Source of the DNA: Girardia tigrina
Lineage: Eukaryota
Assembly: GCA_001938485.1 (NCBI GenBank)
Contig: MQRK01226410.1
Coordinates: forward strand, 1-64,000
Reading direction: 5' to 3'
Length of the DNA stretch: 64,000 bases
The number at the start of each line of letters is the position of its first letter. Position 1 is the stretch's first letter. The position numbers were made by a program, and so were the translations under genes. The notes beneath the pieces were generated by a model. That model ran no database searches and was not told the origin of the DNA. It saw only the letters and a program-made list of their open reading frames with translations. Shown one piece after another: positions 12,201 through 60,672 of the stretch.

Positions 12201-12588
12201 GAGCTTCCCAGATTTCAAAAAAACAATTTATTCTTGATACAGATGCCAGCTTTGATAACATTGGGGCGGTACTGTCACAGATAAGTGATTCGGGGAAAGA
12301 GCAAGTAATAGCATATGGATCGCATTCAATGTCAGCACATGGAAAAGGTTATTGCATAAGAAGGAAAGAACTTTTGGCATTTTTTTTATTTTTTCCAGCA
12401 TTTCAACCATTATCTATACGGGAAGAGATTTAAATTGAGAACGGATCATAAAGCTATAATGTTCATATTTCACACAAAGAAACCTTAACGGCTCAATTCC
12501 AAACGTGGATGAATTACTTAAGTAGTTTGGATATCGAAATAGAATATAAAAAGGGAGTGCTGCACGTAAACGCTGATATGTTATCAAG

Positions 12589-13586
12589 TGTTGGGTCTCT
12601 GGGGGACGATTATAAATTTCTCAAAGATCAGACAAACATTACTTTCCGCTGGTTCGACTGATCTAAGGGGTGTGCTTAGAACGGCAGGTCAAAATTTATA
12701 ATTTATAAACTCAATTATTTACTTTTTTAAATTCAAGGACAACAAATAAGACAATTATTGAATAAAATTTATTTATTTAATTACAATAGTTTACAAACGT
12801 ATATAGGTAAAAATAGCCTGACGAATTTTATATGTGTCTAATAAATTTTTGATTGAAGAGGTCACCCTTCAGTATCAAAAATTAATTTATTTGTAGGAGA
12901 TTTTGATGCAAATAAAATATAATTTCAAAAGAAACTTTTACTAAAATTTATTAAAATTATTACCAATTACTTTAAATGATTTATCAAAATTGAAATAAAT
13001 AATATAATATCAATATTAAGCTATTAATGTTTTGACTTCCTAATCGAACCCTGCAGCGATATTTTCCAAATTTAATCGAAACGGGATTTCTTGGTCCAAT
13101 TTAATTTCCAACGAGACTTCTTAATCCAAATGTTCACAATAACAATTCTCTACCCAATAATCCTTGATAAAATTTCAATTTTTTCTCTTCTGGTAACTTT
13201 AGCTTCAAAGCTTCTTGCGATTGATTTTCCTAATCGCATTTTAATTTATGCCTACACTTACCTAATCGAATTTTAATTTATGTCAACCGTCTACACTTTC
13301 AACGCTCAATATATAGCTCTCCAACTTAGCTGACCCCTGATCTGTACTTGGTCTTTGATTCTACATGAATCACTTTATTTATGTCTGATTTTGTCCTTTT
13401 GACGTCTAAGCCTTTCTTAATTTTTAAACTTTAAAATTATAAATAATATGATATTAATAATAATATTTTTGTACTATTTATTTTATAAATATAAATAAAA
13501 ATAATTAAATTTAAAAGTTTATCAAATAATTAAGAAAATAATAGTAATCTACTATTATTTGATAACATTTTATTATTTATCCAACA
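12589..13586. mobile_element. Solo LTR inserted in Gypsy pol
   Basis: tgttgg...ccaaca termini, 4-bp TSD caag; the pol reading NADMLS/RQNCDTC resumes across it. Confidence 0.85.
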
Positions 13587-15199
13587 CAAGACAGAATTGC
13601 GACACATGTACACAATGCTAAATGGAACACGAAGAAACGAAAAAAGGAAAAACAACAAGACGAGATTATTAGCAGTGACTACGAGTTGTCAAGCCAGAGC
13701 GGGTATGAAAGAATGGATACCGAAAGAAAAAAGGAGCGATCTCATTATACAAACACATAGATTATTGTGCCATGCGGGAGCCAAAAAAGTATACCAATAT
13801 CTGAGGGATAAGTTTGACATGGAAGAAGAAAACAAAACGGTAAAAGAGGTGGTAGGATCATGTATGGAGTGTCAACGAACAAAGACAATAACCACAAAGA
13901 CAAAGGAAGAACACATTAAAATAACAACGTCAGAAATATTTGAGAAAGTTTATATAGTAAAGAAAAGAAAGATACATCTTGGAAATAATTGACCATCTCA
14001 GTAAATACGTGAGCTTTACAGCAATTAGAAGACAAGATGAAGAGACAATAGTACAAATGATAGTACAAAAATGGATATTAAGATTTGGAGCACTAAAAGA
14101 GATCCACGTAGACTGCGGGAAATGTTTCGAAGCGAAAAAAGTAAAAGAAATGATGGAAGCAAAAGGTATCGAATTGATTTTCTCTAGCCCATATCACCAT
14201 AACACAAATGGGATAATTGAAAGGCAGTTTTGGACAATACAAGAATTCATACAGGCAAGTTTAAAAGAAAGAAATGCTACAAGTTGGGCAGACATATTAC
14301 CGGAAGTGGAATTTGCTATAAATGCAACGAAACAAAAGACGATAGGGTGCAGTCCAGCAGAAGTCGTATTTGGGAAGAAAATCGATAGACAAAAGTGGTA
14401 TGATAACAGCAAAATAAACCGGGGGATACCAGAATAAGACTAAAAGAAACAAAACAAGCCAGAGGAAAATGTAACGCGAAGAATTTATAAGGTTGGCGAA
14501 AAGGTCTGGATACAAAAGGAAAATAGAACGAAAGAAGAAAGAATCGAGGGCCCTTATAAAATTATAGAAAGAATTTTTGTAGATAATATTTTTACTAAAT
14601 AAAATGAAATAAAGTTTGCAAATAATGACTCTGGATTTTAATCAGGAACCCAATATTGACCAATATAAATGATAAACTGGTCAATTTTTTATTAATTACT
14701 GATCAAAAATAAATAATACTAATCAAATAATTAAAAAATACTGATCAAAGTATTAAAAATACTGATCATTTAATATATTGCGATTGTTTTCACATAAATT
14801 GTGATATTGCTAATAGTCACAAAGACTAATTAATCATTCACATTTTCAAATTGATTCATATGTTGTCATCGATATTACATTCTTGGCCAAATTTCAGTTC
14901 AAGTGTACCATAGTGAACACAAAAACTATAACAACTAAATTTGAAAAATTAAGAAACAATTGCCGCATTTTTATTAATTTCCGTAAATATATTTTACTTT
15001 ACAACATACAAAAATAACAATCGCTAATTTCTGAGGTCGACAGGAAAACAAACCGAGCGTGATGATCGCGTCATGTGACAATTGTTTGAATCAATCGATT
15101 CGACCTTGAGGATTCGATAAACGATTTGAATTCGATGGATCGACGGTGCTCATTTGGTGACGGCGGATCGCGGCGACCGTGGTGACTGTGGTGGCGCGC

Positions 15200-15324
15200 A
15201 TGGACGACCTGGCGAGCGTGTATGAGCGCCTCATCGACATGGGCTTCTCTGGCGACAGTGTGGACCGCGCCATCCGCAAGGGGCTCTATCGATTTGAGGG
15301 GATCTTCGAGGACCTCGTTGACGC
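15200..15324 (+). CDS. Exon 1 of UBA-UBX-UBX-LRR gene: UBA domain
   Basis: MDDLASVYERLIDMGFSGDSVDRAIRKGLYRFEGIFEDLVDA with the UBA MGF motif; GTGAGA donor, phase 2. Not in the supplied ORF track. Confidence 0.75.
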
Positions 15325-16553
15325 GTGAGACACTTCGCATACATATTTATTAATTGGATATAATAAGATAAACAGGAATTCACATTTTCTATATTTGAAA
15401 AATTAATTAATTATTAATCATAAATTAATTAATAAATAATCAAAAATTATTAATAAATATTAATTAATTAATTCATTTAAAATAAATTAAATAACTTAAA
15501 ATAAAATAAATTATAAATTAAAATAAATTATAAATTAAATAAATTTAATTAATTAATAAAAAATTAAAAGTTTTTAATAAATATTCATAAATTATTTGTA
15601 AAATTAAAAAACCTAATAATAAATATACACAAATTAAGTAATTTATTAATATTTACAAATTAATTAATAAATAATCAAAAATTAATTTATAAATATTCAT
15701 AAATTAATAAATAATTATATATATATNNNNNNNNNNNNNNNNNNNNNNNNNNNNNNNNNNNNNNNNNNNNNNNNNNNNNNNNNNNNNNNNNNNNNNNNNN
15801 NNNNNNNNNNNNNNNNNNNNNNNNNNNNNNNNNNNNNNNNNNNNNNNNNNNNNNNNNNNNNNNNNNNNNNNNNNNNNNNNNNNNNNNNNNNNNNNNNNNN
15901 NNNNNNNNNNNNNNNNNNNNNNNNNNNNNNNNNNNNNNNNNNNNNNNNNNNNNNNNNNNNNNNNNNNNNNNNNNNNNNNNNNNNNNNNNNNNNNNNNNNN
16001 NNNNNNNNNNNNNNNNNNNNNNNNNNNNNNNNNNNNNNNNNNNNNNNNNNNNNNNNNNNNNNNNNNNNNNNNNNNNNNNNNNNNNNNNNNNNNNNNNNNN
16101 NNNNNNNNNNNNNNNNNNNNNNNNNNNNNNNNNNNNNNNNNNNNNNNNNNNNNNNNNNNNNNNNNNNNNNNNNNNNNNNNNNNNNNNNNNNNNNNNNNNN
16201 NNNNNNNNNNNNNNNNNNNNNNNNNNNNNNNNNNNNNNNNNNNNNNNNNNNNNNNNNNNNNNNNNNNNNNNNNNNNNNNNNNNNNNNNNNNNNNNNNNNN
16301 NNNNNNNNNNNNNNNNNNNNNNNNNNNNNNNNNNNNNNNNNNNNNNNNNNNNNNNNNNNNNNNNNNNNNNNNNNNNNNNNNNNNNNNNNNNNNNNNNNNN
16401 NNNNNNNNNNNNNNNNNNNNNNNNNNNNNNNNNNNNNNNNNNNNNNNNNNNNNNNNNNNNNNNNNNNNNNNNNNNNNNNNNNNNNNNNNNNNNNNNNNNN
16501 NNNNNNNNNNNNNNNNNNNNNNNNNNNNNNNNNNNNNNNNNNNNNNNNNNNNN

Positions 16554-16903
16554 AAAAATATTTTTATTTATAAATAAATATTTAATATTTTTGTTTTCTT
16601 GACATTTTTAATTTTAAGATATTTAATAGATACATTAAAAGATATTTTTTTTTATTTTTAAATAGATATTTTATTTTTTATGATTTTTTTTATTATATCA
16701 TTTTTAATTTTTTTAAAATATTTAAAAACAAATTAAAAATATTTTATTTTTAAAAACGTTTTTGATTTTTTAATAGAATTTTATTATATCATTTTTAATT
16801 TAAAAATATTGAATAAGCATATTAACATAAAAATATTTTACCTTTTAAATTAAAAAATAATAAATTATTCAGGCGAGATAAAAATTTAAATTAACCCCTC
16901 ATA
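16554..16903 (-). mobile_element. 3' LTR of the minus-strand Gypsy remnant (runs into gap)
   Basis: Follows PPT aagaaggggga; reverse-complement match to solo LTR 51290-51759. Confidence 0.8.
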
Positions 16904-18843
16904 TCCCCCTTCTTTAAGAATTTTCTCAATTTTTCCACGTTTCGATCTAAACTTCTTCCATCTTCATTTATTAGTTTATACCCTCTATCGTGTGTTTTCT
17001 CTACCACTTTATACGGTCCTTCATATTTATCTTTACTCTTTATCCCCGTTTCCACCTTGACTAGTACTTCATCTCCAATTTCGAAATTTCATCTGGTTGT
17101 TTGTGTCTTCTTTTTCTTGCTGTACCTTTATGTCTTGACTATGCCATCTTTCTCTGTATATTTTCTTACCGAATATAATTTCTTCTGAGCTCTTCCCTAT
17201 TGTTTTCTGAAAAGTTGCGTTTAATGTGAATTCTATTTCCGGTAGTAGTTCCTCCCAGTCTGATCCTTTCTTTGTATGTAACGATGCGTTTAAATATTCT
17301 CTAATCGTCCGAAATTGTCTTTCTACTATTCCATTCGTGTTATGATGGTACGGACTCGAGTAACACATTTTTATATTCATTGATTCTGCCATGTCTTTGA
17401 ATACCTTCGATTCGAATGTCTTCCCACAATCTGCATGTATTTCCATCGGCGCTCCAAATCTCAAGATCCATTTGGTCATTATGGTGTCTTTTATGGTTAT
17501 TTCATCCTGCTTGTTAATGGCTGTCGAAGATATGTACCTACTAAACTGATCTATGATTACAACAATATACTTTTTTCTTCTCCAAGTCTCCTTTAGTAGT
17601 CCGCATATGTCTATGTACACTTTCTCAAATGGTTCATTTGCGACCAATGTCACCCGTTTTTCCTTCATAGCGGTCGTTAATGTTTTACTTTTTTGGCATG
17701 CTTCATATTGTCCAATTACTTCTTTTATTATTTCATTCCGATTGATCATGTCATAATTTTCAGAGATGTATTTCGTTACTTTCTCTGCNNNNNNNNNNNN
17801 NNNNNNNNNNNNNNNNNNNNNNNNNNNNNNNNNNNNNNNNNNNNNNNNNNNNNNNNNNNNNNNNNNNNNNNNNNNNNNNNNNNNNNNNNNNNNNNNNNNN
17901 NNNNNNNNNNNNNNNNNNNNNNNNNNNNNNNNNNNNNNNNNNNNNNNNNNNNNNNNNNNNNNNNNNNNNNNNNNNNNNNNNNNNNNNNNNNNNNNNNNNN
18001 NNNNNNNNNNNNNNNNNNNNNNNNNNNNNNNTGTGTACATGTATCACATGTATTCCGAGACAACATATCCGCGTTGGAATGATCTGTTTCTTTTCTGTAT
18101 TCTAAGTGTATGTCAAGACTTGATAAATAATTAATCCATGTCTGAAATTGCGCCGTTATCGTTTTTTTTGTTTTAACCATAAACGTAATTACCTTATGAT
18201 CCGTTCTCAAAGTGAATCGCTTCCCGTATAAATAATAATTAAAATGTTGACAAAAGTAATACATTGCCAACAGCTCCTTCCTCATAATGCAGTATCCTTT
18301 TTCATGATTATTCATAGAGTGTGAACCATATGCAATAACTCTCTCACGTCCGTCGTTGTCTCTTTGGGATAATACTGCTCCAATCGTGTCGAAACTGGCA
18401 TCAGTGTCCAGTATAAATTCTTTCTTGAAGTCTGGGAATCCTAGAATCGGTGGTGTTGTTAAAGCCTCTTTCATNNNNNNNNNNNNNNNNNNNNNNNNNN
18501 NNNNNNNNNNNNNNTTCTTCTTGTTCAATCCACACAGTTGTTCCAATGTCTTGGCCTTTGTTGCGTAGTCCTTAATAAATCGTCTGTAATAATTGCAAAT
18601 TCCAAGGAAACTTCTTAGATTCTTTACACATTTTGGTTTTTCGAATGTCTTTATGGCTTCTAATTTAGATGGGTCCGTCTGTATACCTTTATCATTAATT
18701 ACATGTCCCAAAAATTTAACTTCCGTTTTTAAGATATAACACTTTTCCGGATTAATTCTTAAGCCTGCTTTCCCGATTTGGTCCAATACTTTATTCAAAG
18801 TTTCATAATGTTGTTCCAACGATTTTGAAAATATAAGAATGCT
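16904..18843 (-). mobile_element. Gypsy pol remnant (RT C-terminus, RNase H, integrase) in intron 1 of the UBX gene
   Basis: KFLGHVI, LRSFLGICNYYRRFI, FILDTDAS, RKELLA, IDQFSR, HADCG, TNGIVERQFRTI. Confidence 0.9.
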
Positions 18844-20475
18844 TTTGGTTGTCAAACGATGCGAGATTATGTATTGAAATATATGAGAACAGATGTATTG
18901 CTGTTGGCAGATTTTTTCGAGAATTTCCGGAAAATGTGTATGGATTATTATCAAATAGATCCTTGTTATTGTTACTCAACTCCTGGTTTGACTTGGCAAG
19001 CTGGAATGAAATTTACCAAACAAAAACTATAATATTTCAAAGAAGATTGATATGATAAATTATTATTTTATGAAGCTGGAATTCGAGGTGGAGTTGCAAC
19101 TGTTTTTGGAAATCGTTATATTCGTTCGCATAATCGATATACAGAAGAAGATATTGGTAAAAAGATTGTGATAAATGAATATGAATTTGATTTGATGATG
19201 GAAGATTTTGAACGATCAAAAGACAAAGCAAATTATGATTTTCATAAATATTTTAGAGAAAGTTATGTATTGTATTACGATGCCAACTCATTGTATTCAT
19301 CATCAATAACCAGATATTTACCTACTAGTGAAATGGAATGGTCTGAAGACGAGGAATTGTCATACGAGGAGTCAGATGAGGAATCTGAACATGGATTCGT
19401 TTATAAAGTCGATTTGCGATATCCTGATTCGATTAAACGAAAATCATTTTATTATCCATTTTGTCCGGAAAAACTGGTACCAAAAACACCGGAGGAAGAA
19501 TTATCGGAATATGAACGTTCGGTTTATCCAGAACGAGCAGATAAAACGGAAAAATTGGTACAGACATTTCTCGACAAACGAAAATATATTGTCGAAGGAA
19601 GGACATTGGATTTCTATTTGAAACAGGAAATGGAATTGGAAAAAATCTATCGGAAATTAGTATACAAGAAATCTCCTTGGTTGCGTCCATTTATTGAATT
19701 CAATATCCAGAAATGAAGGGAAGCAGGAAAACATTTATTTGGAGATTTCTTTTTCAAATTGATGAACAATTCGTTTTATGATAAAACGCTGGAAAATGTT
19801 CGAAATCATTCTAATATTAAAATTGTCAATAATCGAAAAATGTTTGAAAAGCTGGCTGGTAAACCAGAATACAAATCTTTGACTCTGTTCAATCGGAAAC
19901 TTTGTGCAGTTGAAATGCGAAAAACTTCAGTATAATATAAGTTCAATTATATTGGATTAACTGTTTTGAAGCTGTCAAAACTTTTAATGTTTCGATTTGC
20001 TTACGAAGGATTACATACAATTTGGAACTTTGAATCGGGAAATGTATTATTACATTATACCGATACCGATTCTTTTTTTGTACAAATTTACGATAGTTTA
20101 GATAATATTAGTTATAAGTTGAAAGATTGGTTACATAATTCCGATTTGGGAAAATTCAAAGATGGAATGGAAGGTGTGAAAATTATTGAAGAAATGGTTG
20201 ATATAAAATCAAAAGATTATATTTTTTAACATATTTTATTGGCAAAAAATCAGAAAGGAGAAACTTGTAAAAATAAAGAAGTAAAGGATGTAACTTTTGA
20301 AAATAGAATTAATATTTTATTTGATAATGAAAAAATAATGAAAGAAGAGAAAAATATTATATCGAAATTACATGAAATTAATATTGTATCAAAAACAAAA
20401 CAGGCATCTTCTGGATACGATAATAAAAAACGATATCCATTTAATCATATAACATTTTTTTCCTATAGGTTTTAA
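18844..20475 (+). pseudogene. Polinton/Maverick (adintovirus-like) family B DNA polymerase remnant
   Basis: RTDVLLLADFFENFRKMC..YQIDPCYCYSTPGLTW, GIRGG, YYDANSLY, KLMNNSFY(D)KTLEN, HYTDTDS, LGKFKD; contains stops and frameshifts. Confidence 0.88.
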
Positions 20476-21547
20476 TAAAAATGAATTGATGGGAAAATAT
20501 ATTTTATTTTAATTTTTATTAGTAATTTAGAATTAAATGATTTTTGAAATTTACAAAAAAAGTTAAAAAATCGCCTGATTTTTAACATTATTTTTGAAAG
20601 CATCTATTAATGCAACCTATAATCATATTACTCCCGGGCGGATCGAACATTAGCTGTTATGAAAAAACTCACACATTGATTATAATTTTCATTACATATG
20701 AATTGAGGATCATACTTTCTGACAATCCATAGTTGAACTTTCATTTTTTGACATTCTTATACAAAATTAATAATTTTTATCCGATTATCTGAACCAATTT
20801 GGAAAAAGAAAGCTCTTTAACAATATTTTCTACATATTTCATTGGTTAAAATAAAAATAAATAATTACTATAAAAATTATTTTAAAATATTAATTTGCTT
20901 TAAATGTTTAAAATATTAATATAAATTTTATCGAATTATTTAAAATTTTGCAATCACATTAAATTAAAATAATTTCAAATATTGATAATATTAATTATTA
21001 ATTTTTATCCGATTATCTGAACCAATATTAATTTGCTTTAAATTTTTTAAAAATTAATATAAATTTTTTCAAATTATTTAAAACTTAACAATGACATTAC
21101 AATTAAAATGGCATTGTAAATTAAAACCATGTATAATATTACATGTCAATTTAAATCAAATTTGTTTCAGATTAAAAGAAGTAAAATTAAATAAATTAAT
21201 CAGTCATCCAGATATCAGAGACAATCCAAAATCAATACACAAAGTTCAAACACAAAACATCAAACATTATGAATATTTCTCAGACTGTCAATGTGTATAA
21301 ATAAAATGACTGATAGATTAATATTCTGAGAATTCATTGTGGTCTTTTGTTTATGTTATTATACTGAATATCACCAGTTTCAAACCTTTTTTTCATTTCA
21401 TTAATGATCTAGAGAATGTACAAATACAAACATTAACTAGACGACAATTTTACTGCACTGTACTTAGATAAGATTGTGTTAAATAATAATTAATAATTAA
21501 AATCACTGAATGATCTGAGTGTTTTATTAATTCTAATTATCGTTCAG

Positions 21548-21718
21548 GGAGGAGTCTGAAAAGTCTCAGCAAAAATCAACTGATCATACTGCTACTGCCG
21601 GACAGAGCTCACAACAGGGACAACAAGGACCAAGGCTCAGGTGGAATCCATCGAGTCTCATTGACTCTATCTCGACGCAAGAGAACACGGGGATGGACGA
21701 TGAATACCGCTTGGACAG
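21548..21718 (+). CDS. Exon 2 of UBA-UBX-UBX-LRR gene (low-complexity linker)
   Basis: ttcag acceptor; open frame EESEKSQQ...DEYRLD; phase 2/2, compatible with exons 1 and 3. Confidence 0.65.
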
Positions 21719-22984
21719 GTCGTTATTGTTGTTAAAATCGAAAGATATGTTTCTGTATTAATATTCTGTCGTAATATATTTCGTATTAAAAAGGGTACCA
21801 TTGTTGGGTATTTGAATTAAAACTCGGTTTTCTCCTTGTTATTATTAAATTTCTAATCTGACTCCAAAACGACCAAAAAGTTTCTTCCAACAATAATATA
21901 TGAAGAATAAACACAAATCCTTTTAATATACTTTATTTGCAAATAACAACTTGAGCACAAAATTAAATCGAAACTTTAACAGTAAATCAATATTTTGAAG
22001 CACACTCAACCAGCACAAACCAATATCAATTTAGAACGAGCAATATCTGAAAATTATGATTAAATTTTTCTCCTTGGCAGGATACTAAATTTGTTAAGTA
22101 AACCAAAATTAAATGAAGAAAGATTACCGTAAATCATAATAAAGTTTAAAGATTTAATGGGATCCGTAAGTATAATTTTGTCCGTAATTTTTGTTGTGAA
22201 TATGACTGAAATAATTATTGTTTATATACTAGTTTCTAAATAACCTTGAAAATTAGTTTGCTAAAACAATTCTAAAAATATTTACAAATATTCTAAAAAT
22301 TTTATTAAAATAAGTATTATGATAATCAAAAAATTATTAATTTTAACCAGAGAATTATTTTTAATTTTTCTATTAGGTTTTAAAATTTTAATTTATATTT
22401 TTCGGAACCCCGACACCATTATAAAATGGTAACAGTTTTCCAAATGAATTGTTTCCTTGACACAGGTGATAGCATTTTCTGGTTTTAGCATTATGAAGGA
22501 CATATGTGTATATATGTAGTTATATATATATATATNNNNNNNNNNNNNNNNNNNNNNNNNNNNNNNNNNNNNNNNNNNNNNNNNNNNNNNNNNNNNNNNN
22601 NNNNNNNNNNNNNNNNNNNNNNNNNNNNNNNNNNNNNNNNNNNNNNNNNNNNNNNNNNNNNNNNNNNNNNNNNNNNNNNNNNNNNNNNNNNNNNNNNNNN
22701 NNNNNNNNNNNNNNNNNNNNNNNNNNNNNNNNNNNNNNNNNNNNNNNNNNNNNNNNNNNNNNNNNNNNNNNNNNNNNNNNNNNNNNNNNNNNNNNNNNNN
22801 NNNNNNNNNNNNNNNNNNNNNNNNNNNNNNNNNNNNNNNNNNNNNNNNNNNNNNNNNNNNNNNNNNNNNNNNNNNNNNNNNNNNNNNNNNNNNNNNNNNN
22901 NNNNNNNNNNNNNNNNNNNNNNNNNNNNNNNNNNNNNNNNNNNNNNNNNNNATATATATATATGATCACTTTTTATATTGGATT

Positions 22985-24320
22985 TAAAAGGTTGTCGGTG
23001 AAAACGGAGTTTTCTATCAGTCGATTCTATGCATACATTGAGTGGAAAAATGGAACGACTGCAGCTGAAACCTATAGAAAGTTGTTCAATGCCTTCCCTG
23101 ATGATTGCCCAACGGAACGCACAATAAGAAACTGGTTCTCTGATTTTACCTCAGGTAAGCGGCTATCGTTGGACGATCACCCACGAAGTGGACGTCCTTC
23201 AGCAACAACAACTGATGATTTGATTGAAAAAGTTAGGAAAATACCGTAATTTCCGCACTATAAGCCGCACATTGCCTGCTTTTCCCAAAAAAACATTATA
23301 AGCTATGACATTATATAAAAAAACATTATAAACATTATAAAACAAATAAAAACATTATAAAAACGTATAAGCCGCAACTCTTAAATTATGACTCATTTCA
23401 GGTTTTTTAGTGCGGCTTATAGTCCGGAATTTACGGTAATTAGCAGGATGAAAGAATGTCTTTAAGACACATAAGTGAAATGCTTGGTGTCAACAAAGAA
23501 TTAATAAGGACAATCCTCCATGAAAATTTGAACAGGAAAGAGATTTTGAACATCTGGGTGCCTTATCAACTGACTGATGATCACAAACGACAACGTATTG
23601 AATCCTCAAGAAATATTTTGCAACTTGTGCAACAATATGGGAAAGAATATTTGATGAAACGATGGATAACAGTTGATGAAACGTGGATATTATTTTCCCC
23701 TACATTATGGAGATCCGACTTACGAGTATGGGCAAGTGGAGATGATCCTCGACCACGTGCTGTTCAAAACATAAAATTTGGACGAAGAGCAATGCTTATT
23801 TTGACATTCACAGTTGATGGTAAGTTTCACATCGAAGTAACAAAATCTGGTGAGGCTATCAATTTTGAAAGATATACAGAATTCATTCAAAATAGTCTTA
23901 CGAAGTTTAGTAAAGACAGACGACAAGTGAATATGCGAGAAATTCTTTGGGAGCATGATAATGCTCGACCACATTCATCCAAGTTTACCACGGAGTTTTT
24001 TCAGAAAAAAACATATTGAATTTATTAAACAAACTCCATATTCGCCTGATTTAAATCAGTGTGACAAATGGCTATTCAAATTTTTAAAAGAATCACTAAG
24101 AACAACATCATTTGCAAGTGAGGAAGAGGTCTTACAAGCGGTCAGGGATATCATGAGGAATCTCATGAGGAAAACTTTCACATGAATTTGATAAACTTTT
24201 TACACATGCTGAAAATGTTATTTGTTGTAATGGTGAATATACTGTTGTGTAGAAATATATATTTGTTTTATTTAGAAATTAGAAATACAGAGGAGTAACG
24301 AAAAAAACTTTTTTGCCATA
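22985..24320 (+). mobile_element. Decayed mariner transposase (DD34D)
   Basis: PTERTIRNWF, PRSGRP, WVPYQLT, TVDETW, HDNARPH, YSPDLNQCD; ends approximate. Confidence 0.88.
23244..23436. mobile_element. pogo/Tc2-type MITE inserted in the mariner
   Basis: TIRs ccgtaatttccgcactataagccgcac / gtgcggcttatagtccggaatttacgg, TA TSD. Confidence 0.85.
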
Positions 24321-24358
<38 letters not shown>

Positions 24359-24599
24359 GCTCGCAATTGCGAAGTAAAGGTATTTCAAACACCAAAGTAG
24401 TTTCGAAAAATTTTATAAAATGTTTTTTTTAGTATATTAGTGAAAAAAATCAATAGGTATGGCTAGAAATTTTTGAGGAAAAATAAAAAAGATCATTTTG
24501 CCTTTAGAAATTGAGTGAAAGAAATCGATGAAACGCTATTTCTTGAAGGGTGCGGTACCGAATGGTGGCGAATAAATTTACAGATCTTGTTCATTATTA

Positions 24600-24927
24600 C
24601 CATCACATATTATTACGTTCACATGTATCTTGCGATGGGCATATTCACCATAAGCTTCTTGGAGTAATCGGTATGATTCAGCAGCAGTTTTATTTGATGG
24701 TAACAAAAAATTAGTACCGTCCGCGAATGCTCCCTGCTTGGCATAAATTTGGACATCTAAAACACAGAAATACAACAATTATTAAAACGCTTTATCAATT
24801 TATGAGTTACGTATGAGACACTACATAATTACTCAATATTATGACATCATTGCCTAACCATTGACCTACTTTTTGCATTGTGCACAATCCGTTTTCTGAA
24901 ATCCGCATTTCATACTTGTACACCTAA
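24600..24927 (-). mobile_element. Mariner 5' fragment
   Basis: TIR ttaggtgtacaagtatgaaatgcgg and KTAAESYRLLQEAYGEYA motif. Confidence 0.7.
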
Positions 24928-24974
24928 TATATGAAAAATGATATTATCAATATAATGCAACATCATTTATACAG

Positions 24975-25083
24975 ACTCGGTAACGGGAACAGCAACAAAG
25001 TACCGTCGTCCACAGTTTCTTCCTCGCTCATCGCCAGCAGCACTCTCTCTGATTCCACTAACCGGAAAATGACGAAGATTCAG
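24975..25083 (+). CDS. Exon 3 of UBA-UBX-UBX-LRR gene
   Basis: tacag acceptor; (R)LGNGNSNK...KMTKIQ; GTAAAA donor in phase 0. The TKIQ|IM join supplies the first UBX strand. Confidence 0.7.
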
Positions 25084-25658
25084 GTAAAAGACTTAATCTT
25101 AATAATTTCAATAAATTTTATTTCATCTGAATTATCGATATCATAAATTATTTATAATAATAATTATAATAAATAATTTTGAACGAAAGTTTTTTTTAAG
25201 TGTAAACAGACGTCCAATGTTATTTTATGTTTTATCAAGAGAAAATGAAGTTGTTTCTTCTATTCTTCCTTTTACAATAGCCGTTTGAAGAAGAAAGTGG
25301 TAACATTGAATCTCTACTTGCAGTGCAATATGACATAGACTACCAGACTCACGAATAAGAAGTTATTATTTTAATTTGACCAAAACCATCTTACGCTTAC
25401 TTGTAAAGATTGGATATAAGAGAATATTCAAAACCGACGGGATATTTTAAAAACTTATAAAAATGGCAATCACTTTAGCTTTGGTATCCTCTGAAGTTAT
25501 AAATCAAGGGTTGATCGATATTTCTCGACGAGAGCCGCAAATCAAAAATATCAGATTTTTGAGAGCCGCATAAGAAAAATGTCATATATTACACAATATA
25601 TAACAATAAATATAAAGTCAAGGTTTAAAAATTTTTTTCATTACAAATGAATTTTCTT

Positions 25659-25697
<39 letters not shown>

Positions 25698-25700
<3 letters not shown>

Positions 25701-25726
25701 GGATAAAAACAAGACGACGCGTTTCG
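25698..25726 (-). repeat. End of another copy of the hammerhead-bearing repeat, between (TA)n and a gap
   Basis: tagggataaaaacaagacgacgcgtttcg differs by one base from 47471-47499. Confidence 0.75.
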
Positions 25727-26301
25727 NNNNNNNNNNNNNNNNNNNNNNNNNNNNNNNNNNNNNNNNNNNNNNNNNNNNNNNNNNNNNNNNNNNNNNNNNN
25801 NNNNNNNNNNNNNNNNNNNNNNNNNNNNNNNNNNNNNNNNNNNNNNNNNNNNNNNNNNNNNNNNNNNNNNNNNNNNNNNNNNNNNNNNNNNNNNNNNNNN
25901 NNNNNNNNNNNNNNNNNNNNNNNNNNNNNNNNNNNNNNNNNNNNNNNNNNNNNNNNNNNNNNNNNNNNNNNNNNNNNNNNNNNNNNNNNNNNNNNNNNNN
26001 NNNNNNNNNNNNNNNNNNNNNNNNNNNNNNNNNNNNNNNNNNNNNNNNNNNNNNNNNNNNNNNNNNNNNNNNNNNNNNNNNNNNNNNNNNNNNNNNNNNN
26101 NNNNNNNNNNNNNNNNNNNNNNNNNNNNNNNNNNNNNNNNNNNNNNNNNNNNNNNNNNNNNNNNNNNNNNNNNNNNNNNNNNNNNNNNNNNNNNNNNNNN
26201 NNNNNNNNNNNNNNNNNNNNNNNNNNNNNNNNNNNNNNNNNNNNNNNNNNNNNNNNNNNNNNNNNNNNNNNNNNNNNNNNNNNNNNNNNNNNNNNNNNNN
26301 N

Positions 26302-26341
<40 letters not shown>

Positions 26342-27495
26342 CAGTCCACCCTCGGTTTTGGGGCAAAAAATATTAAATATTTCCCCAAAACCAAAAAAAC
26401 ACCCAAAAAATTAATAAAAACATCGAAAAACTAAATAAAATTTATTCCAATTTTTTAAAATAATCAGTTATTGTTTTCCCAAATTTAAATTCCCTCCTTA
26501 AAAAATTATTAAATTGCATTCTAAACTTTATGTATTCTTTTTGAACATCAAAAGGTATATATTCAATAACATCTTCCAATTCTTTAAGTTTTTCCCATCC
26601 CAGCTTTAGTTTATCATAACGAACTTTTTCACAAATTTCAGCTGTTCCGGTCTCCTTCTCCAGCGGTTCTGATAAATTTTCTTCATAAACCTCAACAATA
26701 ACGTCCTCTATATCTTCCTCAAACATATGAATTTTCATATTTTGGTTGGTTTCTTCTTTTTTGGAAAATGCCTTTTTGAAACAATTAATAATCGATTCTT
26801 TGGATATTAACTCCCAGGTAATAGAAGTAAAAACAATAGCATTTTTAATATTAATGTTTTTAAATCATCTTCTTCAGTTGCCAAAAAATCCACAAGAGAA
26901 TTATTGTAATGATCCTTGAATGCCTTTATCAAACCCATATCCAATGGCTGTGTTATGGAAGTTATTTTTTTGTCTTGTGTTTCCAAACTTAATGCTTTTT
27001 CTTTATAAATTACCACACACATTCAATAACAATCCGATAATAAAATTCGGCCCCCTTTGTCTTTAGTTATTTTCAAATTAACTTTTTGAATAAATTTCTT
27101 ATCACCAAGTTAGAAATATTTTTGTAATAATATTCAATTAATAACGATTTGAACTTCTGTTAGTTGGCATAATGTTTAAAGAAAGCACAAGTTAAAAAAA
27201 ATAAACAGTTAATTAATAGAATATTAAAAGTTTATTCATTATTTTTTAAAAAAAGGCTTGTAATATTTTAAATTTTGGGAAATTTTGATACCTATTTCAG
27301 ACCAAGATTAAATATTATTTTTAGGTTAAAAAATATGCCCCTAAAAACGAAACACAATTGTACTTTTGGAATAAAAACACAATATAAATAATATGTAATA
27401 GTGTGATTATCTTAAAACCTGCCCCAAAAACCAAAATTTCCCCAGAAATCAAGGTGCCCCACCATAAAGAATGCCCCGGAAACGAGGGTGGACTG
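26342..27495 (-). mobile_element. pogo/Tigger transposon, internally deleted
   Basis: TIRs cagtccaccctcg / cgagggtggactg with TA flanks; TSITQPLDMGLIKAFKDHY motif. Confidence 0.85.
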
Positions 27496-27614
27496 TATAT
27501 ATGTGTGTTATTTTATTCAATTTTGCATAAATCATATTTTGTTTTTGTTTTATTAATTTTTACAATGATTAATGGAAATATAAATTTAGATCTTTAAAAA
27601 TATTTTAATGGACA

Positions 27615-28362
27615 TGTTAGGGTTTTGAAAATATATGCGAACATTTTTGATAAAGTTTTATATAGGAAATTTTTAAATAATTCTTTTAGTAAAATTATTA
27701 ATTTCAAACAAAATAATATTTAGTTTAACAAAACTTGGAATTAAAAATTATAAATGTTTGTTTTACTTCATCAAAAATTATAAATATTTTAGTCTTTGTT
27801 TTATTTCATCAATTTTCAAGGCTGATGAAAATTACTATATAAACAGTAGCAAATTTAGTTTTAGTTTGCCCAAAAATATTTTCAAGAAATTTACTTAAAG
27901 AAGAAGTCTCTGAAACAAGTAACGTTAGTGCAAAAGCTTACTTCATTTTAATTTTATTCTTTTTAAAATATTCTTTTAATTTTAAAACCAAAAGTATCCC
28001 GTATGGGAGAACAAGGTTTAAACTAAAAGATTACAATATCTTTCGTTTTGGGAGATTCACAGCTTTTACTGTAATCTGTTAACTCACACGAAATATTGAT
28101 TTGTGTTTGTATTCTGTCATCAAGAGTTGAATTATTATTATTAGTATTTTTGACTTGTTAATTTTTGTTATTTGAAATAAAATTTAATAAAAGAATTTGT
28201 GTTCATTATTCATATATTTATGTTGGAAGTCCTTTCTGATTAATTGGAGTCAGATCAAAGATTAAATATTTCAGATTTCAGATTATTGATTATAGATCAA
28301 AGAATAAAGTTTTGTGTTTTGAAACGTAAATATTAAAATCAAAGATAATTTAATACCCAACA
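27615..28362 (+). mobile_element. Solo LTR
   Basis: tgttag...ccaaca termini, 4-bp TSD gaca, AATAAA near the 3' end. Confidence 0.7.
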
Positions 28363-28639
28363 GACATGTCCTGTAAAAATTCAATTCCTAAATAATTTTT
28401 TCTTTAATTTTAAATCATTCAATTATAAATTATTTTTAAAAAGACTTTCCATGGACAATTAACTTCAATAAAACATTATGATTTTTATTTTAGAACTTGA
28501 TTTTAAAATATTCAATAAATTATTTTTTTAATAAAACTTTTCCGTTGACAATTAAATTCAATAAGCATTATGATTTTTATTTTAAATAGTGTTACAAGAT
28601 ATATCAAAATCTTCTTTACAATATTCTTTAACTCCGAAG

Positions 28640-28967
28640 CTGTTATTTTAATTGTGATTTTTTAAAACCTAATTTTTATAAAAAGTTTTTCTAATTTAAT
28701 TAGTAAAATATTATCATTGCACTATAATTTTTTATAAAAACTTATTTCATTTTAATTAGTAAAATACTATCTGCGAACTATAATTTTTATAAAAAGTTAT
28801 TTCAATTTAATTAGTAAAAATATTATCTATAAACTTAAAACTTTTTTTATAAAAGTTATTTCATTTTAATTATTAGAACATTATTTTTTAATTTAGCTCA
28901 AATATAAATATGATTTTTAATTTTAAAATATCAAAAATTTACAGTTCACCAAAAAGAACCCCTAACA
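28640..28967 (-). mobile_element. Partial LTR of the 7129-14655 Gypsy family
   Basis: Reverse complement of 7129-7190 joined to 9229 onward; internal tandem units of about 60 bp; left limit approximate. Confidence 0.75.
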
Positions 28968-29079
28968 CACTACAACACTTAATTAATAATAAAACATTAC
29001 TTGGACTTATAAATAACCAATCTTCTTTGATATCGATTGATTTTAATAAAGCATTTAATTCTTTTATCAATTTATTTAG

Positions 29080-31356
29080 ATCATGGATTTGTTGGATCCA
29101 TCCATTGAACCCTTAACATATAACCATCCATTTTTATCAACCATTTGTACTATCCGTGACCTGATTTGTTGGTTTCATAAATGTCGTAACTCTATTGGTC
29201 GTATATCTCTTCCTATTGATACAAGTTCGTGTCGTCTTGCATTATCCCCAGATACAAGTCTGCATGTCTTAATTGATATGTTTCAACAGTTAAAGTGGCA
29301 TTTGGTGATGCCATCGGGGGCCCAATCTAAACGTATTTACGGAAGCGATAATCTGGATAAGACACTAGAATGTCTTGATTTATATCCCAGTGCTCATCTT
29401 CTCGCTATCATCAGCTGCCCGTTAGAATTACAAAAGGAAATCAAACCGAAACATACAAAGTTACTCCAGATGTCTTCAAACCTAAATAATTTTATTGATC
29501 CTAACGCAATTACAAATAAAGATTCCAATAATTGTTGCGTTAATATTAGGATGATCAACTATCGTAACAACCCTCTTTATCTGCAAGGCAATGCTTCGTA
29601 TTCTCATAACTACGATCCCAAGAAAACAACTCTTCAGAGAATCGCTGTCGACTTTTCTTGCTTCTGTCAAATGAATCTAGCATCCTTTACTCTCTTACAA
29701 ATGCAACCGAGGAAAAGATTCTCTTATCCTGATGATTATTTACGCACGTTATCTGATCTTGGTCTTGGTGGTGATGTGACTCTTTACTGTCATTCTATTT
29801 TACCGGTGGCTACAGAATCCAATGACAACAACAGTGTCTCAAACAATAGCAACGAAGTCATAATGCCAAATATTGATCTATTCAATCCAAGGACTGACAT
29901 CGCTGCTGTGACTGTTCATAGTCGAACTGAAACCGGAGTTTTACCGTTCTCTGGAGTCGGTGTATCTCTTCCAGGATCTTATACAAGTAAAACAGTCGCT
30001 GAGATTTGGACTAATAAACAACTGAGTCTTCCTGGTGCTCGAGTGGTTTCATTCGATCAAAGTACGATTAAAAACGTACCGAAGTCATTATACTATTTGT
30101 GTTTCCAAGAAATTTATCATTCTTTAAAGTTGTATAATTCTCTTGTTTGTCAATCGGTAAAAAAGTTACCCAATAACATTCAACAAACCCTTATTAAACA
30201 TCTGATTGATGAGCAACTATTAACGCCAAGTATCATTAAATTTTTCTGCTCTCCTGGGACGTGTCTTACCACTCTAGATCTTTCTTATACGATCTTGGCA
30301 ACAAACGAAATTCTCAAGTGCGTGAGCAGGTGTCTGTCATTGTTGGAGCTTGTACTCGACAATGAGGAACACGTATTTAGCAATGAGGGTTTATGGCACT
30401 TGCGGAATTGTTCCAATTTGAGACGTCTTAGTTTGAACTATTGTAGCAAAATTAACGACTGGGGGATTCAGGTTGTTGGCGTGTTGCCCGCTCTTTCCGT
30501 GCTTGCTATCAAATATACATCAGTAACTAACGTCGGTCTAAAGCACATCTTTCTCCATCTCAACACAGAAAATGAATCCACTTCAATACCAGTATTAAAA
30601 TCTCTGGATTTATCAGGTTTATCGATTAGTGATGAGTGTTTGTCTTCCATTGCGATCTTCCGACGACTGGAATTGTTGAATCTTTCTTCGACCAATCTAA
30701 CAAATCCGTCTCTCTTTCCTCATTTGGCCGAATTGCGTCACATTGACATCAGTAACTGCCAATCCCTGGTCTGGGAGAAACAAGCCCACATAAAATCTTT
30801 GAGTGAATCGTTTCCAAAATTATCTTCAATTAATGTACGAGGAGTATCGAATTCCAATCTAGTGCACGTAACCATGGCAATATCTCATTGTAAAAATCTC
30901 AGTCAAATAGACGGTATCTTCTGTCATTCTCAAATGACTGCCAGTCTGGCAGCAAGTTTGTCTCATTTGCCCCTTGAAACCATTATTCTGACAAATTGTC
31001 GACACGTTACTGATTTGTGGTTACCTGTGCTCGCTCGGTTCTCCGAAACTCTGACGCATCTTGTGATCAGTTCTTGTCCTTCGATCACTGGTCAAAACAA
31101 CTCGCTTGTAAATAACTTGAGTAGATTAAGGAATCTATCTTGGCTTGACCTGACCCATCTCGAGAACGTCAGTGGCCTTCAAATCTGTCAGCTTATTCTT
31201 GGACAGTATTTCCCCAAACTGCAGGTTGTTTGGATATCTCTCACCGAGGCTGAGGAAATTCAGTTTAGGACTGCCTCCAAAAACCTTCATTTTAAAGTAA
31301 ATGTTTCAAAGAGTTTTGTAAATTCACTCGAGTCAGATCTAGCGGCAAATATTTAA
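29080..31356 (+). CDS. Terminal exon of UBA-UBX-UBX-LRR gene: two UBX-like domains, SHP box, BC/Cul2 box, leucine-rich repeats
   Basis: tttag acceptor; 758 sense codons. Motifs DKTLECLDLYPSAHL, QPRKRF..DDYLRTLSDLGL, FSGVGVSL, SLYYLCFQEI, LPNNIQQTL, then many LxxLxLxxC/T repeats. Confidence 0.88.
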   Translation: MMDLLDPSIEPLTYNHPFLSTICTIRDLICWFHKCRNSIGRISLPIDTSSCRLALSPDTSLHVLIDMFQQLKWHLVMPSGAQSKRIYGSDNLDKTLECLDLYPSAHLLAIISCPLELQKEIKPKHTKLLQMSSNLNNFIDPNAITNKDSNNCCVNIRMINYRNNPLYLQGNASYSHNYDPKKTTLQRIAVDFSCFCQMNLASFTLLQMQPRKRFSYPDDYLRTLSDLGLGGDVTLYCHSILPVATESNDNNSVSNNSNEVIMPNIDLFNPRTDIAAVTVHSRTETGVLPFSGVGVSLPGSYTSKTVAEIWTNKQLSLPGARVVSFDQSTIKNVPKSLYYLCFQEIYHSLKLYNSLVCQSVKKLPNNIQQTLIKHLIDEQLLTPSIIKFFCSPGTCLTTLDLSYTILATNEILKCVSRCLSLLELVLDNEEHVFSNEGLWHLRNCSNLRRLSLNYCSKINDWGIQVVGVLPALSVLAIKYTSVTNVGLKHIFLHLNTENESTSIPVLKSLDLSGLSISDECLSSIAIFRRLELLNLSSTNLTNPSLFPHLAELRHIDISNCQSLVWEKQAHIKSLSESFPKLSSINVRGVSNSNLVHVTMAISHCKNLSQIDGIFCHSQMTASLAASLSHLPLETIILTNCRHVTDLWLPVLARFSETLTHLVISSCPSITGQNNSLVNNLSRLRNLSWLDLTHLENVSGLQICQLILGQYFPKLQVVWISLTEAEEIQFRTASKNLHFKVNVSKSFVNSLESDLAANI

Positions 31357-32042
31357 TAAAAGACTTGGGTTGTCTCAGGGATTCATCCTATTATCATTAT
31401 CGCAATGATTATTATTATTATTATCATATATTATTTATATTATCATTATTATTATTGTAGGATCATCGATGGATATTTTTGCATTTTTGTTCTTTATTTT
31501 TGTTTTAAATAAAATGTTCAATTTGTTCGATAATGTTATTTCTACTATTTATGGTCTGCGGAGTCCTGCGCTAGGAATGTGTTGCGTCGCCTTCCCGATA
31601 AGAACTTTACAATTCATAAAATAGAAATTATTTACGATAGAAAGAAGTAAAATCGTAATGACGAAAAGAAAAACATCACATCCTGTGCTTGCAATGCGAG
31701 AAAGTGTTTGGTGAAAGTAACATTTTATATTAAACAAAATGGAAAAGTTGAAATGTATAAATATATACAACTGTAGTATTACATAAATATGAAAAAAAAG
31801 TTTAAAAATATTTTTAAAAATGAAATTTAAGCAGATAGAGAACATTTTAAAAAATATCGACAAACACTACTGTGAGGAATATTTTGAATGTTTGATGTTT
31901 TGTGTTTGAATGTGTATGTTGATTTGAAGATGTATCTCTGCTACCCAGATGGATGATTAATATTTGAATTCTTATTATCTAAAAATATGTTATGTTTAAA
32001 TTTATTTTTAATTTCAAATAATTTTACAATTTTAAATAAGTT

Positions 32043-35000
32043 TGTGAAGGACAGCTTCACTCTTAAAATTTTTGAAACAATTAATTTTTATAAAGAATTT
32101 CTAAAATAAGGAAATATGTAAAATCAAAAGTTTTTTTAAGTAATTATAATTAAAAAATATATTTAATTAATTTTAAAAAGTTATTTTCGGAAATAATCAA
32201 ATTTTAATTGTAGAGTAAAAAAACTTCATCTGAAATAGTGAAATTAATTGGGAAATAATGGATTTTTAAATAATTGATTTAAAAGAAATATATAAAGACA
32301 ATGATAATAATAATATGAATTATAAAATTAATAAAAATAAGTCATTATTCATGAGCGAGCCGAACTTCTATAAGGTACCAGAAACAAGTCACAAAGTGGT
32401 AAAATTTATAAAAAAGGTCACGTTTAATGAAAGAGAATTGTTGATAATAACTAATTATGAAAATGTACCATTTTTTTACAGTAGATTAGAGGGTCGACCA
32501 AGTATCAGAGTCATGATTGAGGACACAGAAATTGAATGCCTATTAGATACGGGGGCAGCCTTAAATGTGATGACAGAAGAAATACTTAAGAAATTAAAGA
32601 GCACACAAATGGAACAAACAAATCAGAAATTGACAGCAGCAAATGGATTACAAATGGATGTTAGAGGAGAAATAGACACTGATCGAAATTGGGAAGAAAT
32701 AAGAGAAAATAAGATTTATAATAGTAAAGAATTTAAGACCAGACATGATTGGGGGCATGCCCTTAATGAAAGAATTCGGAATAGAGCTACAATGGAAAGA
32801 AGATAAACAACAGGGTACGAGTAAAATCAACATATGCGAAATCGAGGCAAAGTTTGGGAAAGGAATCACAGACGAAGAACGAGAAAAGGAAGCATTGAAA
32901 ATGATCGATACACGAAACGATAAAGCCATAGAGGAAATAATTCACCAATATCAAGGCATATTCATGGCAAACGACTGGTATGTTGGCTGTACGAACTTGT
33001 TACGACATAGAATAGAAACAACAGGTGGACCTATAAACACAAAACCGAGAAGACAGCCAGTACACTTAGAGGACAAACTTGAGGAAGCAATCAAAAATCT
33101 AGAAGAAAATGGAATAATAAAGCCATGCAATTCAAAATGGAACACACCAATAGCATGCGTTTGGAAAAAAGACAAGGACAAAATCAGACTGTGTCCAGAT
33201 TTCAGACAGTTAAACCTAATTACAAAGAAACAGGCATTCCCCATGCCAAATATAGCGGAAATGATGGAAAGGCTATATGGAACCAAATATTTCAGCACAA
33301 TAGACTTAGGAAACGCGTACTATCAGGTAGAATTGGACAAGGAATCACAGGAAAAAACGGCGTTTTCCACTAAATCAGGACAATTCTGTTTTAAACGGAT
33401 GCTTTTCGGGATAGCAGCAGCCCCAGGAACGTTTCAAGAACTAATGAACAAAGTATTAAAACCGATAAAGAAGGGAGCATCAGTTTATCTTCATGGCATA
33501 ATAATAGCAACAAGCACAAAGGACGAACATTATAACGTAGTCAAAGAAGTATTTGGAAGAATAAAGGAGACAGGATTAAGAATCAAACCATCGAAATGTA
33601 AAATATTATGACAAGAAGTAAAATTTTTAGGACATGTTATAAATGATAAAGAGATACAGGCAAACCCAGAAAAAATAGCAGAAATAGAGAATTTTCAAAG
33701 ACCCTCATGTATCAAAAATTTAAGAAGTTTTCTAGGAATTTGCAATTACTACATAAGGTTTATAAATGGATATGCGAAGAAAGCTTTAATATTGGAAGGA
33801 ATGTGTGGCTCGAATAAAGAAAAAATAATTTGGACAGATGCATGTGAAATAGCTTCTCAGGACATGAAGAAAGCATTGATAACGGCACCAATATTGAGTT
33901 TTCCAAATTTCAAAAATCAGTTTATTTTAGATATAGACACTGGTTTTGACAGCATAGGGGCGGTACTATCGCAGATAGTTGAATCAGGCAAGGAACAAGT
34001 AATAGCAAATGGATCACATTCTATGTCAGCACACGAAAAAGGATATTGCATAACAAGAAAAGAACTTTTGGCAATTTTTTACTTCTGCCAACAATTCAAT
34101 CATTACTTATACGGGAAAAAATTTAAGCTGAGAACGGACCATAAAGCTATAACGTTCATGTTTCATACAAAGAAACCATTAACAGCTCAATTCCAAACGT
34201 GGATGAATTACTTGAGCAGTTTAGATATAGAAATAGAATACAGGAAAGGAGAACTACACAACAACGCGGATATGCTATCCAGACGAAATTGCGACACGTG
34301 TACTCAGTGTCAAATGAAACATGAAGAAGCTGAAAAGGGTAAGAATAAGACTAGATTGTTAGCAGTGACTACAAAGAGCCAAGCGAGGGCAGGTCAGAAA
34401 GAATGGATACAAAAAGAAAAACGGAACGATTTAATAATACAGGCACAGATTATTGTGTCATGCAGGAGCAGAAAAAGTATATGAATTTCTAAGGGACAAG
34501 TTTGATATGGAGGAAGAAAAGAAAACAGTAAAGGAGGTAGTCGGAACATGTATAGAGTGCCAACAAACAAAGGCAATGACCACGAAGACAAAGGAAGAAC
34601 ACGTTAAAATAACAGTGTCGGAAATATTTGAAAAGTTTTATATAGATATATATTGACCGTGGCATCTGACAGTAAGAAGAGAAAGATACATTCTCGGAAT
34701 GATAGATCACTTTAGCAAGTACATCAGCTTGACGGTAATCAAGAGACAGGACGAAGAAACAATTGTACAAACAATATTACAAAAATGGATATTAACATTT
34801 GGTGCACCAAAGGAGATACATGTTGATTGTGGTAAGAGTTTCGAGGCAAAAAAAGTTAGAAAAATGTTGGAGAAAAAAGGCGTTAAAATAATTTTCTCTA
34901 GTCCATACCACCAAAATACAAATGGAATAATCGAAAGACAATTCAGGACCATTCGAGAATTCATTCAAGCTAGTTTAAAAGAAAGGAATGCCATGAGTTG

Positions 35001-43110: not shown

Positions 43111-43729
43111 TTATTTCTCAACTGGCCCTGCTTTTTCTGTTTCATTTTGAATATCGAGTTATGTAAATATTTATACAGTAGGGATTCACAGATTGTATCG
43201 AGCTATCTAGTGTTACTGCAACGTAATAGTATGTACTCTCAGTCGGACAACCACAACATATCGAGTAAACCGGATTATCGAGTATCCAAAATCGAGTTAT
43301 CCGGAGTCGACTGTATTAACATATACAGATTTTAATTTGTGAATAATTCGGAATTTTAAGTTTTTATATAAAATTGGAAAGTTATGTTTTTTTAAGATTT
43401 TATCTTAAATACAATTTTTTATTAATACTTTTTCAACAAATTTACAAAATTTTCGTTTGTTTTATATTTTAAAATTTCATTATTTGAATTTTAATTTACT
43501 CATCCATTTTAATTTATTGGTAACATAATTCTTGATTTTTGAAAACTTTCGTTAAAAAGTAATTCTTGATTTTAAACTTAGCTTTAATAATTAATTTTTG
43601 ATTTTGTTAAAAAAACTTAACTTTAATTATTTATTACAATTTAATGAAAGACACTGGTTTTTAATTAGATACTTGAGTTTAAATATTTTAGATGTTAAAA
43701 AATTAAATATTCAAAAATTTCAAATTGGC

Positions 43730-60358: not shown

Positions 60359-60406
60359 CTATAGAATTATTAAGATAATTAGACACTGTGTCACATTATA
60401 TCTTAC

Positions 60407-60623: not shown

Positions 60624-60672
60624 CTAAAAGACATAATTATAATATTTTTAATTATTAATATGTAAGATTAAC

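Follow-up and report, generated by a model that had tools for sequence, protein, structure and literature searches.

A candidate Elongin C-cullin substrate receptor that may carry its own p97 adaptor, from an uncharacterised UBA-UBX-LRR family

Positions 1 to 64,000 of Girardia tigrina contig MQRK01226410.1 (forward strand; the whole stretch analysed, 64 kb, is called the window) contain a predicted four-exon gene whose product combines modules of p97/Cdc48 adaptors (UBA, UBX and an SHP-type motif) with those of cullin substrate receptors (a BC box, a cullin box and leucine-rich repeats, LRRs). Judged by its sequence, the gene belongs, as a divergent member, to a UBA-UBX-LRR family that already exists in databases under the automatic name si:ch73-173p19.1 and is uncharacterised. 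Taking sequence motifs, structural models and analogy together, we give about an even chance to the reading that the protein serves an Elongin C-cullin ligase as substrate receptor and has a p97/Cdc48 adaptor built into it. The receptor arm looks well kept in this lineage and the p97 arm weakened.

In the studied cases (cullin-RING ligase 2 (CRL2) with LRR1 on the replisome, and CRL2-VHL), substrate choice and p97 recruitment are performed by separate proteins, bridged by UBXN7 or FAF1. If the proposed reading is true, a natural fusion shows that the ligase-to-p97 hand-off can be hard-wired, offers a one-gene tool for ligase-to-p97 channelling in frog or fish, and points to a substrate conserved from fungi to vertebrates. 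The family matters more in this respect than the window's own gene, a divergent member with a seemingly part-eroded p97 arm.

Gene model and family membership

The four exons (Table 1) total 2682 nt and, translated from the DNA, give one frame of 893 amino acids with a single terminal stop; all three introns have GT..AG ends. The phase-compatible frame proposed in the first-pass annotation was thus borne out, and the short motifs that it had named (MGF, FSGVGVSL, SLYYLCFQEI, LPNNIQQTL and QPR) were all found in place. Exons 1, 2 and 3 have GC contents of 61, 50 and 50%, against 29% for the window, and these small exons gain support because their composition differs from that of their surroundings. 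Between 15100 and 29080 there are four GC islands (100-bp windows with at least 48% GC), and three of them fall on these exons. Five N gaps (40 to 827 nt) lie within the introns, and exons could hide there. A sequencing-run search with words from exon 4 listed 21 runs, 13 of which (six studies) hold at least half of the words; eight of these 13 are RNA by guess only and the sole run recorded as RNA holds 0.05, so the matches are no evidence of expression or habitat. Exon 1 and the 100 bp upstream of it form a CpG-rich island amid AT-rich DNA, and GC content at third codon positions drops steeply from 5' to 3' along the gene (0.83, 0.50, 0.67 and 0.37 in exons 1 to 4). The 3' untranslated region may be very short, because an AATAAA at 31354-31360 overlaps the stop codon.

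Table 1. Coordinates of the predicted gene, its encoded modules and the other features of the window
Feature	Position (nt)	Strand	Description
Exon 1	15200..15324	+	UBA-like domain following the start codon; MGF loop; LV of helix 3 aligned with family LL
Exon 2	21548..21718	+	Low-complexity S/Q/G linker; AG/GT ends, phase-compatible; GC island; no Pfam family
Exon 3	24975..25083	+	S/T-rich linker; AG/GT ends, phase-compatible; GC island; no Pfam family
Exon 4	29080..31356	+	Open frame, 758 codons up to stop; UBX1 through LRRs; 59% identity over 99% with P0001
UBX1-like segment	29203..29409 (aa 177-245)	+	Degenerate, lacking both the beta-1 Arg and FPR
UBX2	29527..29799 (aa 285-375)	+	Beta-1 Arg292 retained; loop QPR (aa 344-346) replaces FPR
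SHP-box motif FSGVGVSL	29947..29970 (aa 425-432)	+	Predicted disordered linker, pLDDT <50
BC-box-like helix SLYYLCFQEI	30085..30114 (aa 471-480)	+	Fits PMC4878042 consensus; helix 17-30 of model
Cullin-box-like motif LPNNIQQTL	30166..30192 (aa 498-506)	+	Fits Cul2-box consensus; helix 45-57 of model
LRR solenoid	30262..31284	+	About 12-13 repeats, FBXL/Rad7-like; model strands
Broken LTR-retrotransposon copies	9349-14434, 32270-35310, 57547-60205	+	Pfam reverse transcriptase, RNase H, integrase, protease
Broken LTR-retrotransposon copies	17072-18975, 5212-6123	-	Pfam domains as above
Mariner/Mos1-type transposase fragments	790-1230, 7242-8492 (-), 22953-24016, 54335-55400		HTH_48, Transposase_1; one within intron 2
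DDE_Tnp_1_7 and DDE_1 fragments	43595-43942 (+), 41208-41426 (-)		Pfam
Broken open reading frame run, intron 1	19051-20472	+	One frame ends in YDANS
Weak PAP2-superfamily match	60406-60636	-	E 0.00015, under cut-off; at GC island

Direct searches returned a single ortholog, P0001 (731 aa), which was one of 8000 candidates for exon 4 and one of 2012 for residues 140-440. A search of 1.84 billion proteins gave 4941 matches, the best 150 of them nearly all generic LRR proteins, and at E<1e-4 the box region matched only P0072 (a garter-snake fragment) and P0113. A profile made from three rows over the box and the first LRRs recovered 50 proteins, including 16 from reptiles and frog (14 genes), 15 of which have a precomputed UBX; the annotation of the 16 is mostly uncharacterised. 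Database labels read only 'uncharacterised', 'UBX' or 'F-box/LRR-like', which may be because CUL2 receptors share no signature domain (PMC13015453). In the vertebrate alignment the order of modules is UBA, coiled-coil, one UBX, long linker, helical box and LRRs. Profiles built from vertebrate rows only (14 rows; 10 for UBA) matched the window in the same order: the UBA in exon 1, both UBX segments, and the box with the first LRR. The box and first LRR profile scored 22.4 bits with the window, 16.5 with P0001 and at most 5.7 with the best of 180 non-family proteins. The way in which the family was found has no bearing on the UBA and UBX matches; the match at the box is not wholly independent of it.

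The frog protein P0166, compared with Atlas clusters, gave 0.99 and 0.98 for si:ch73-173p19.1 (Chordata) and 0.96 for a Mucoromycota UBX-LRR cluster, and the same two clusters were the top leads for exon 4 (0.89 and 0.88, under 0.9); the fungal side of the family is known here from the Atlas cluster label only. The assignment of the gene as a divergent family member follows from the ordered matches of the vertebrate-only profiles together with these cluster leads, and it agrees with the first-pass annotation, which named uncharacterised UBA-UBX-LRR proteins of fish and invertebrates and judged the family probably not new. Literature searches, with most subscription papers outside their coverage, found no paper on the UBA-UBX-LRR family or on the fusion. 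New here are the conservation test of the SHP-type motifs across vertebrate members and their erosion in the nearest ortholog. P0113 was rejected as a family member, having no alignment at the box. Its LRRs are nevertheless preceded by a similar SLxxLC...LP pattern, and proteins related to the box-LRR half may therefore exist that lack the UBA-UBX part. The next neighbours by features in the Atlas are plant LRR proteins of ~580 aa and AMN1-like proteins.

The receptor and p97 arms

The BC-box consensus is (S,T,P)LXXX(C,S,A)XXX followed by a hydrophobic residue (PMC4878042), and published spacers from BC box to Cul2 box measure 8-23 aa (PMC4878042, PMC3355856). The window protein matches both box consensuses with a spacer of 17 residues, a joint pattern with a chance rate of 0.55% when the 110-aa stretch ahead of the LRRs was shuffled. 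Leu2, Leu5 and C/S/A6 of the BC box are invariant in 17/17 family rows; conservation counts for the box, and those for SHP below, cover tetrapods only (frog, alligator and squamates) plus the window and P0001. The ZYG11B residues that bind Elongin C (L18, L19, I21, C22, L23, L26, F50, P51, V54 and L58; PMC13201589) map by spacing to L472, Y473, L475, C476, F477, I480, L498, P499, I502 and L506. An AlphaFold2 model of 147 residues comprises three helices capping the LRR and three LRRs, with a mean predicted local distance difference test (pLDDT) of 86.9. When 48,161 chains were searched by structure, residues 12-147 of this model aligned with ZYG11B 13-162, from its VHL box onward (Z 7.8, root-mean-square deviation 4.6, 132 residues). 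Identity as an F-box protein was rejected, as Pfam scans of exon 4, of the box region, of P0001 and of four vertebrate members gave no F-box match. Fold searches with the whole model recognised the LRR fold via Z scores of 27.6 (FBXL2), 25.4 (FBXL17) and 23.4 (Rad7), and were uninformative on UBX or box because they were filled by LRR proteins. The first-pass BC/Cul2 box thus stood as regards consensus, spacing and folded helices; the proline of its Cul2 box is less general, as described below. Collectively, the box data give fair, not decisive, support for an Elongin C-cullin receptor, at the level of sequence and model.

For the SHP box, the full consensus h(x)1-2 F/W (x)0-1 GxGx2L (quoted in PMC7403338) is satisfied by FSGVGVSL. 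The SHP core appeared by chance in 0.1% of cases when the 91-aa linker was shuffled 20,000 times, and in 0.8% when the whole of exon 4 was shuffled. An SHP core lies between UBX and box in 11/16 vertebrate members (14 genes), compared with 5/180 unrelated LRR proteins; the vertebrate cores are W-type, and the leading hydrophobic residue is present in 0/16. A second motif (aromatic-x3-G-x2-L), 49-69 residues ahead of the box, occurs in 13 of the 16, and at least one of the two SHP-type motifs in 15. The window's FSGVGVSL, 45 residues ahead of its box, is in register with this second motif. Four vertebrate isoform models (P0153, P0156, P0161 and P0165) lack the first motif; unless this is an annotation error, the p97-binding segment may be alternatively spliced.

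The UBX domain contacts p97 via its beta-1 Arg and a Phe-Pro-Arg loop between S3 and S4 (PMC10641518). UBX2 scored 18.6 bits with the family UBX profile (best of 180 non-family proteins at most 1.9) and 20.5 bits with Pfam UBX (E 0.00054; cut-off 21), and its model has the order strand-strand-helix-strand-strand at a pLDDT of about 80-90. The beta-1 Arg is kept in 18/18 family rows (R292 in the window), and FP followed by K, R or S stands at the loop in 13/16 vertebrate members. The first-pass annotation was correct that this loop is altered, with QPR in UBX2 and none in UBX1. Its two UBX domains are not the family plan: vertebrate members have one, and UBX1 is weak, scoring 8.3 bits with the family UBX profile and 3.5% hhalign probability over 66 columns. 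The UBX1 segment did not fold (pLDDT <50) and had no match in a Pfam scan. It is conserved in P0001 and is likely a lineage-specific duplicate.

For the UBA, exon 1 gave the top score of 2640 segments (2638 from the six frames of the window, together with P0001 and P0113) with the vertebrate-only profile, yet the match is weak (11 bits, E 0.053); the Pfam UBA match has an E of 0.037, and hhalign of the predicted UBA against the vertebrate family alignment (A3) gave an E of 0.0014. The coiled-coil that precedes UBX and is conserved in that alignment was not seen in the 893-aa model and could sit in an N gap; it is a vertebrate trait, not established as family-defining.

Proposed mechanism, comparisons and rival explanations

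In the mechanism that we propose, whose steps come from motifs, conservation and established pathway knowledge, the BC-box helix would bind Elongin C, and the helices that follow would contact a cullin (Cul2 in an animal host). The LRR solenoid would bind a substrate, which would be ubiquitinated. The UBA would hold the ubiquitin chain while UBX2 and SHP engage p97 N domains, as the SHP and UBX of p37 engage adjacent N domains, and p97 would extract the substrate. In fungal members Cul3 would be the likely partner, as in yeast Elc1 complexes. We hold a little more tentatively, at somewhat below an even chance, that the family is an ancient animal-and-fungal one of single-chain tag-and-extract receptors, in which the cullin was switched between fungi and animals and the substrate is pulled from its complex upon ubiquitination.

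In the window protein the modules follow one another as in the rest of the UBA-UBX-LRR family, with a probable UBA and a linker ahead of UBX, then a second linker that carries SHP-type motif(s), the box and the LRRs; each module is matched by profile, the UBA weakly. It differs from vertebrate members in having an extra degenerate UBX and no pre-UBX coiled-coil, QPR in place of FP[KR]R, a single F-type SHP where those have one of W-type and a further, degenerate motif, as well as a stricter BC/Cul2 box and fewer LRRs, at ~25% identity. We know of no UBA, UBX or SHP in LRR1, ZER1 or PRAME and of no p97 modules in Rad7, which uses Cul3. The CRL2 receptors with VHL box and LRRs (ZYG11B/ZER1, LRR1 and PRAME) have the same succession of BC box, spacer, cullin box and LRRs. 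ZYG11B differs in being described with three domains, VHL box, LRR and ARM (PMC13201589); the window protein has its box in mid-protein and no ARM. Yeast Rad7 (PDB 5zb2, an entry whose title gives a complex with Elc1) shares the LRR fold (Z 23.4) and serves as a model for fungal members lacking Cul2, although the aligned part of the model (43-147) takes in the LRRs and, of the box, no more than the last helix.

Among p97 cofactors, UBXN7 and FAF1 have the same UBA and UBX layout, with UBA for ubiquitin chains and UBX for the p97 N domain, and UBXN7 links the cullin ligase and its substrate with p97 (PMC11048390). Unlike the window protein, which would link via its BC box and carries an LRR on the same chain, UBXN7 docks on cullin NEDD8 via a ubiquitin-interacting motif (UIM) and selects no substrate. 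UBX and SHP occur on a single chain in p47, p37 and ASPL, and an E3 ligase and p97-binding site in HRD1, UBE4B and CHIP (PMC10641518). The window protein is distinct from the former in lacking a SEP domain, and none of the adaptors in the excerpt of PMC10641518 is a cullin substrate receptor.

Several observations weigh against the proposed dual function. P0001, called from a Met equivalent to window residue 137, gives no confirmation of the UBA exon. It also lacks both SHP-type motifs, the whole segment being deleted in the alignment, and its UBX loop is DSR; like the window's QPR, this departs from the p97-binding Phe-Pro-Arg consensus. Conservation of the boxes in orthologs had been set beforehand as a test of the first-pass annotation, and the loss of SHP and the DSR loop in this 59% identical protein went partly against it; the SHP claim held for the core in vertebrate members and not for P0001. 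The BC box of P0001 has D at position 1 and departs from the consensus, while its strict Cul2 box and 17-residue spacer agree. Among 15 vertebrate rows, ten have the full BC-box consensus, every one via a final Ala, and only four have the strict Cul2 box with its proline. The vertebrate rows are themselves a narrow set of closely related sequences that amount to three lineages (14/16 squamates), found via a profile that included the window's own box-LRR region; with a vertebrate profile of the box alone, LRR excluded, neither the window nor P0001 came among the top 8. Foldseek with the box model returned nothing at E<=0.001, and ZYG11B came only ninth by fold, after FBXL2 (Z 9.7), KDM2B (8.9) and Rad7 (8.6) among others, with Z values of a size that is unspecific where repeats are concerned. 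Every Pfam match in the window protein falls under the curated cut-off. The first-pass assignment to Cullin-2 also fared poorly: Cul2 and Cul5 are described as animal-specific, with Cul1, Cul3 and Cul4 in fungi and an Elongin C-Cul3 complex in yeast (PMC2785787, PMC12816148; excerpts that leave the extent of early-diverging fungal sampling unseen), yet the family occurs in Mucoromycota, so that the label is insecure. Cul2 as a fixed partner was rejected on the same grounds.

Three other accounts, each improbable in our estimate, divide this evidence differently. The protein might bind Elongin C and p97 and not be a productive receptor; as a tether or regulator it would either deliver p97 to Elongin C complexes or compete for these complexes, with the LRRs as scaffold; its BC box would then do for cullin-RING ligases what UBXN7 does via its NEDD8-binding UIM. 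The UBXN7/FAF1-type layout, the span of the family over lineages with differing cullin sets, and the invariance of the BC-box leucines where 11/15 vertebrate rows have not kept the cullin-box proline are in keeping with such a role. This account is made unlikely by the strict Cul2 box in the window and P0001, by the LRRs being the family's most conserved part, and by the box leading directly into LRRs, the commonest layout of CUL2 receptors (PMC13015453). A similarly low probability attaches to the idea that the helices are simply an N-terminal LRR cap, or an F-box-like Skp1 site, of a p97 adaptor with substrate-selecting LRRs and no Elongin C ligase. F-box/LRR proteins are indeed the best fold matches, and the cullin-box stretch aligns weakly with the N-terminal stretch of FBXL17 (13 bits, independent E-value 0.7). 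The vertebrate boxes fit the consensus loosely, and a relaxed hydrophobic pattern is unspecific, one misaligned row having passed it too. The missing Pfam F-box match and the low chance rate of the joint box motif speak for the receptor reading over this one, as does the alignment of ZYG11B from its VHL box, whereas FBXL2, KDM2B and Skp2 match over internal stretches of their chains.

The question of whether the p97 arm functions in this lineage leads to the last account, which we consider marginally less probable still: the arm is vestigial or unjoined, the gene encodes a plain BC-box/LRR receptor, perhaps from a Met at 29083, and FSGVGVSL is a leftover or chance match. The state of P0001, with no SHP, a DSR loop and a start at the equivalent Met, fits this account, as do the missing pre-UBX coiled-coil and the sub-threshold Pfam scores of UBA and UBX. 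Set against these are the best UBA match of the window in exon 1, joined to exon 4 by clean, GC-distinct and in-phase exons, the position of the SHP motif in line with the vertebrate SHP-type motif at ~0.1% chance, and the retained UBX beta-1 Arg. The QPR loop lowers the case for UBX-cofactor membership, with function still possible because other loop variants, GMPP and GFPP, are known (PMC7403338). The p97 arm of the proposed receptor thus appears, from the sequences compared, to be a family trait that is eroding in this lineage, with QPR in the window and both SHP and loop lost in P0001.

The surrounding window

The rest of the window consists mostly of transposon remnants, and the long introns of the gene are filled with them as well. 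The broken long terminal repeat (LTR) retrotransposon copies, which we take to be Gypsy, include one that lies antisense within intron 1, and plus-strand copies stand on both sides of the gene. The DDE_Tnp_1_7 and DDE_1 fragments are presumably piggyBac-like and pogo-like. The YDANS that ends one frame of the intron 1 run resembles, as we assume, the family-B DNA polymerase motif of Polinton-like elements, a label that is unconfirmed; a Pfam scan of the 19051-20472 run gave no polymerase match at E<=1. The PAP2-like match on the minus strand is possibly an exon of a second host gene.

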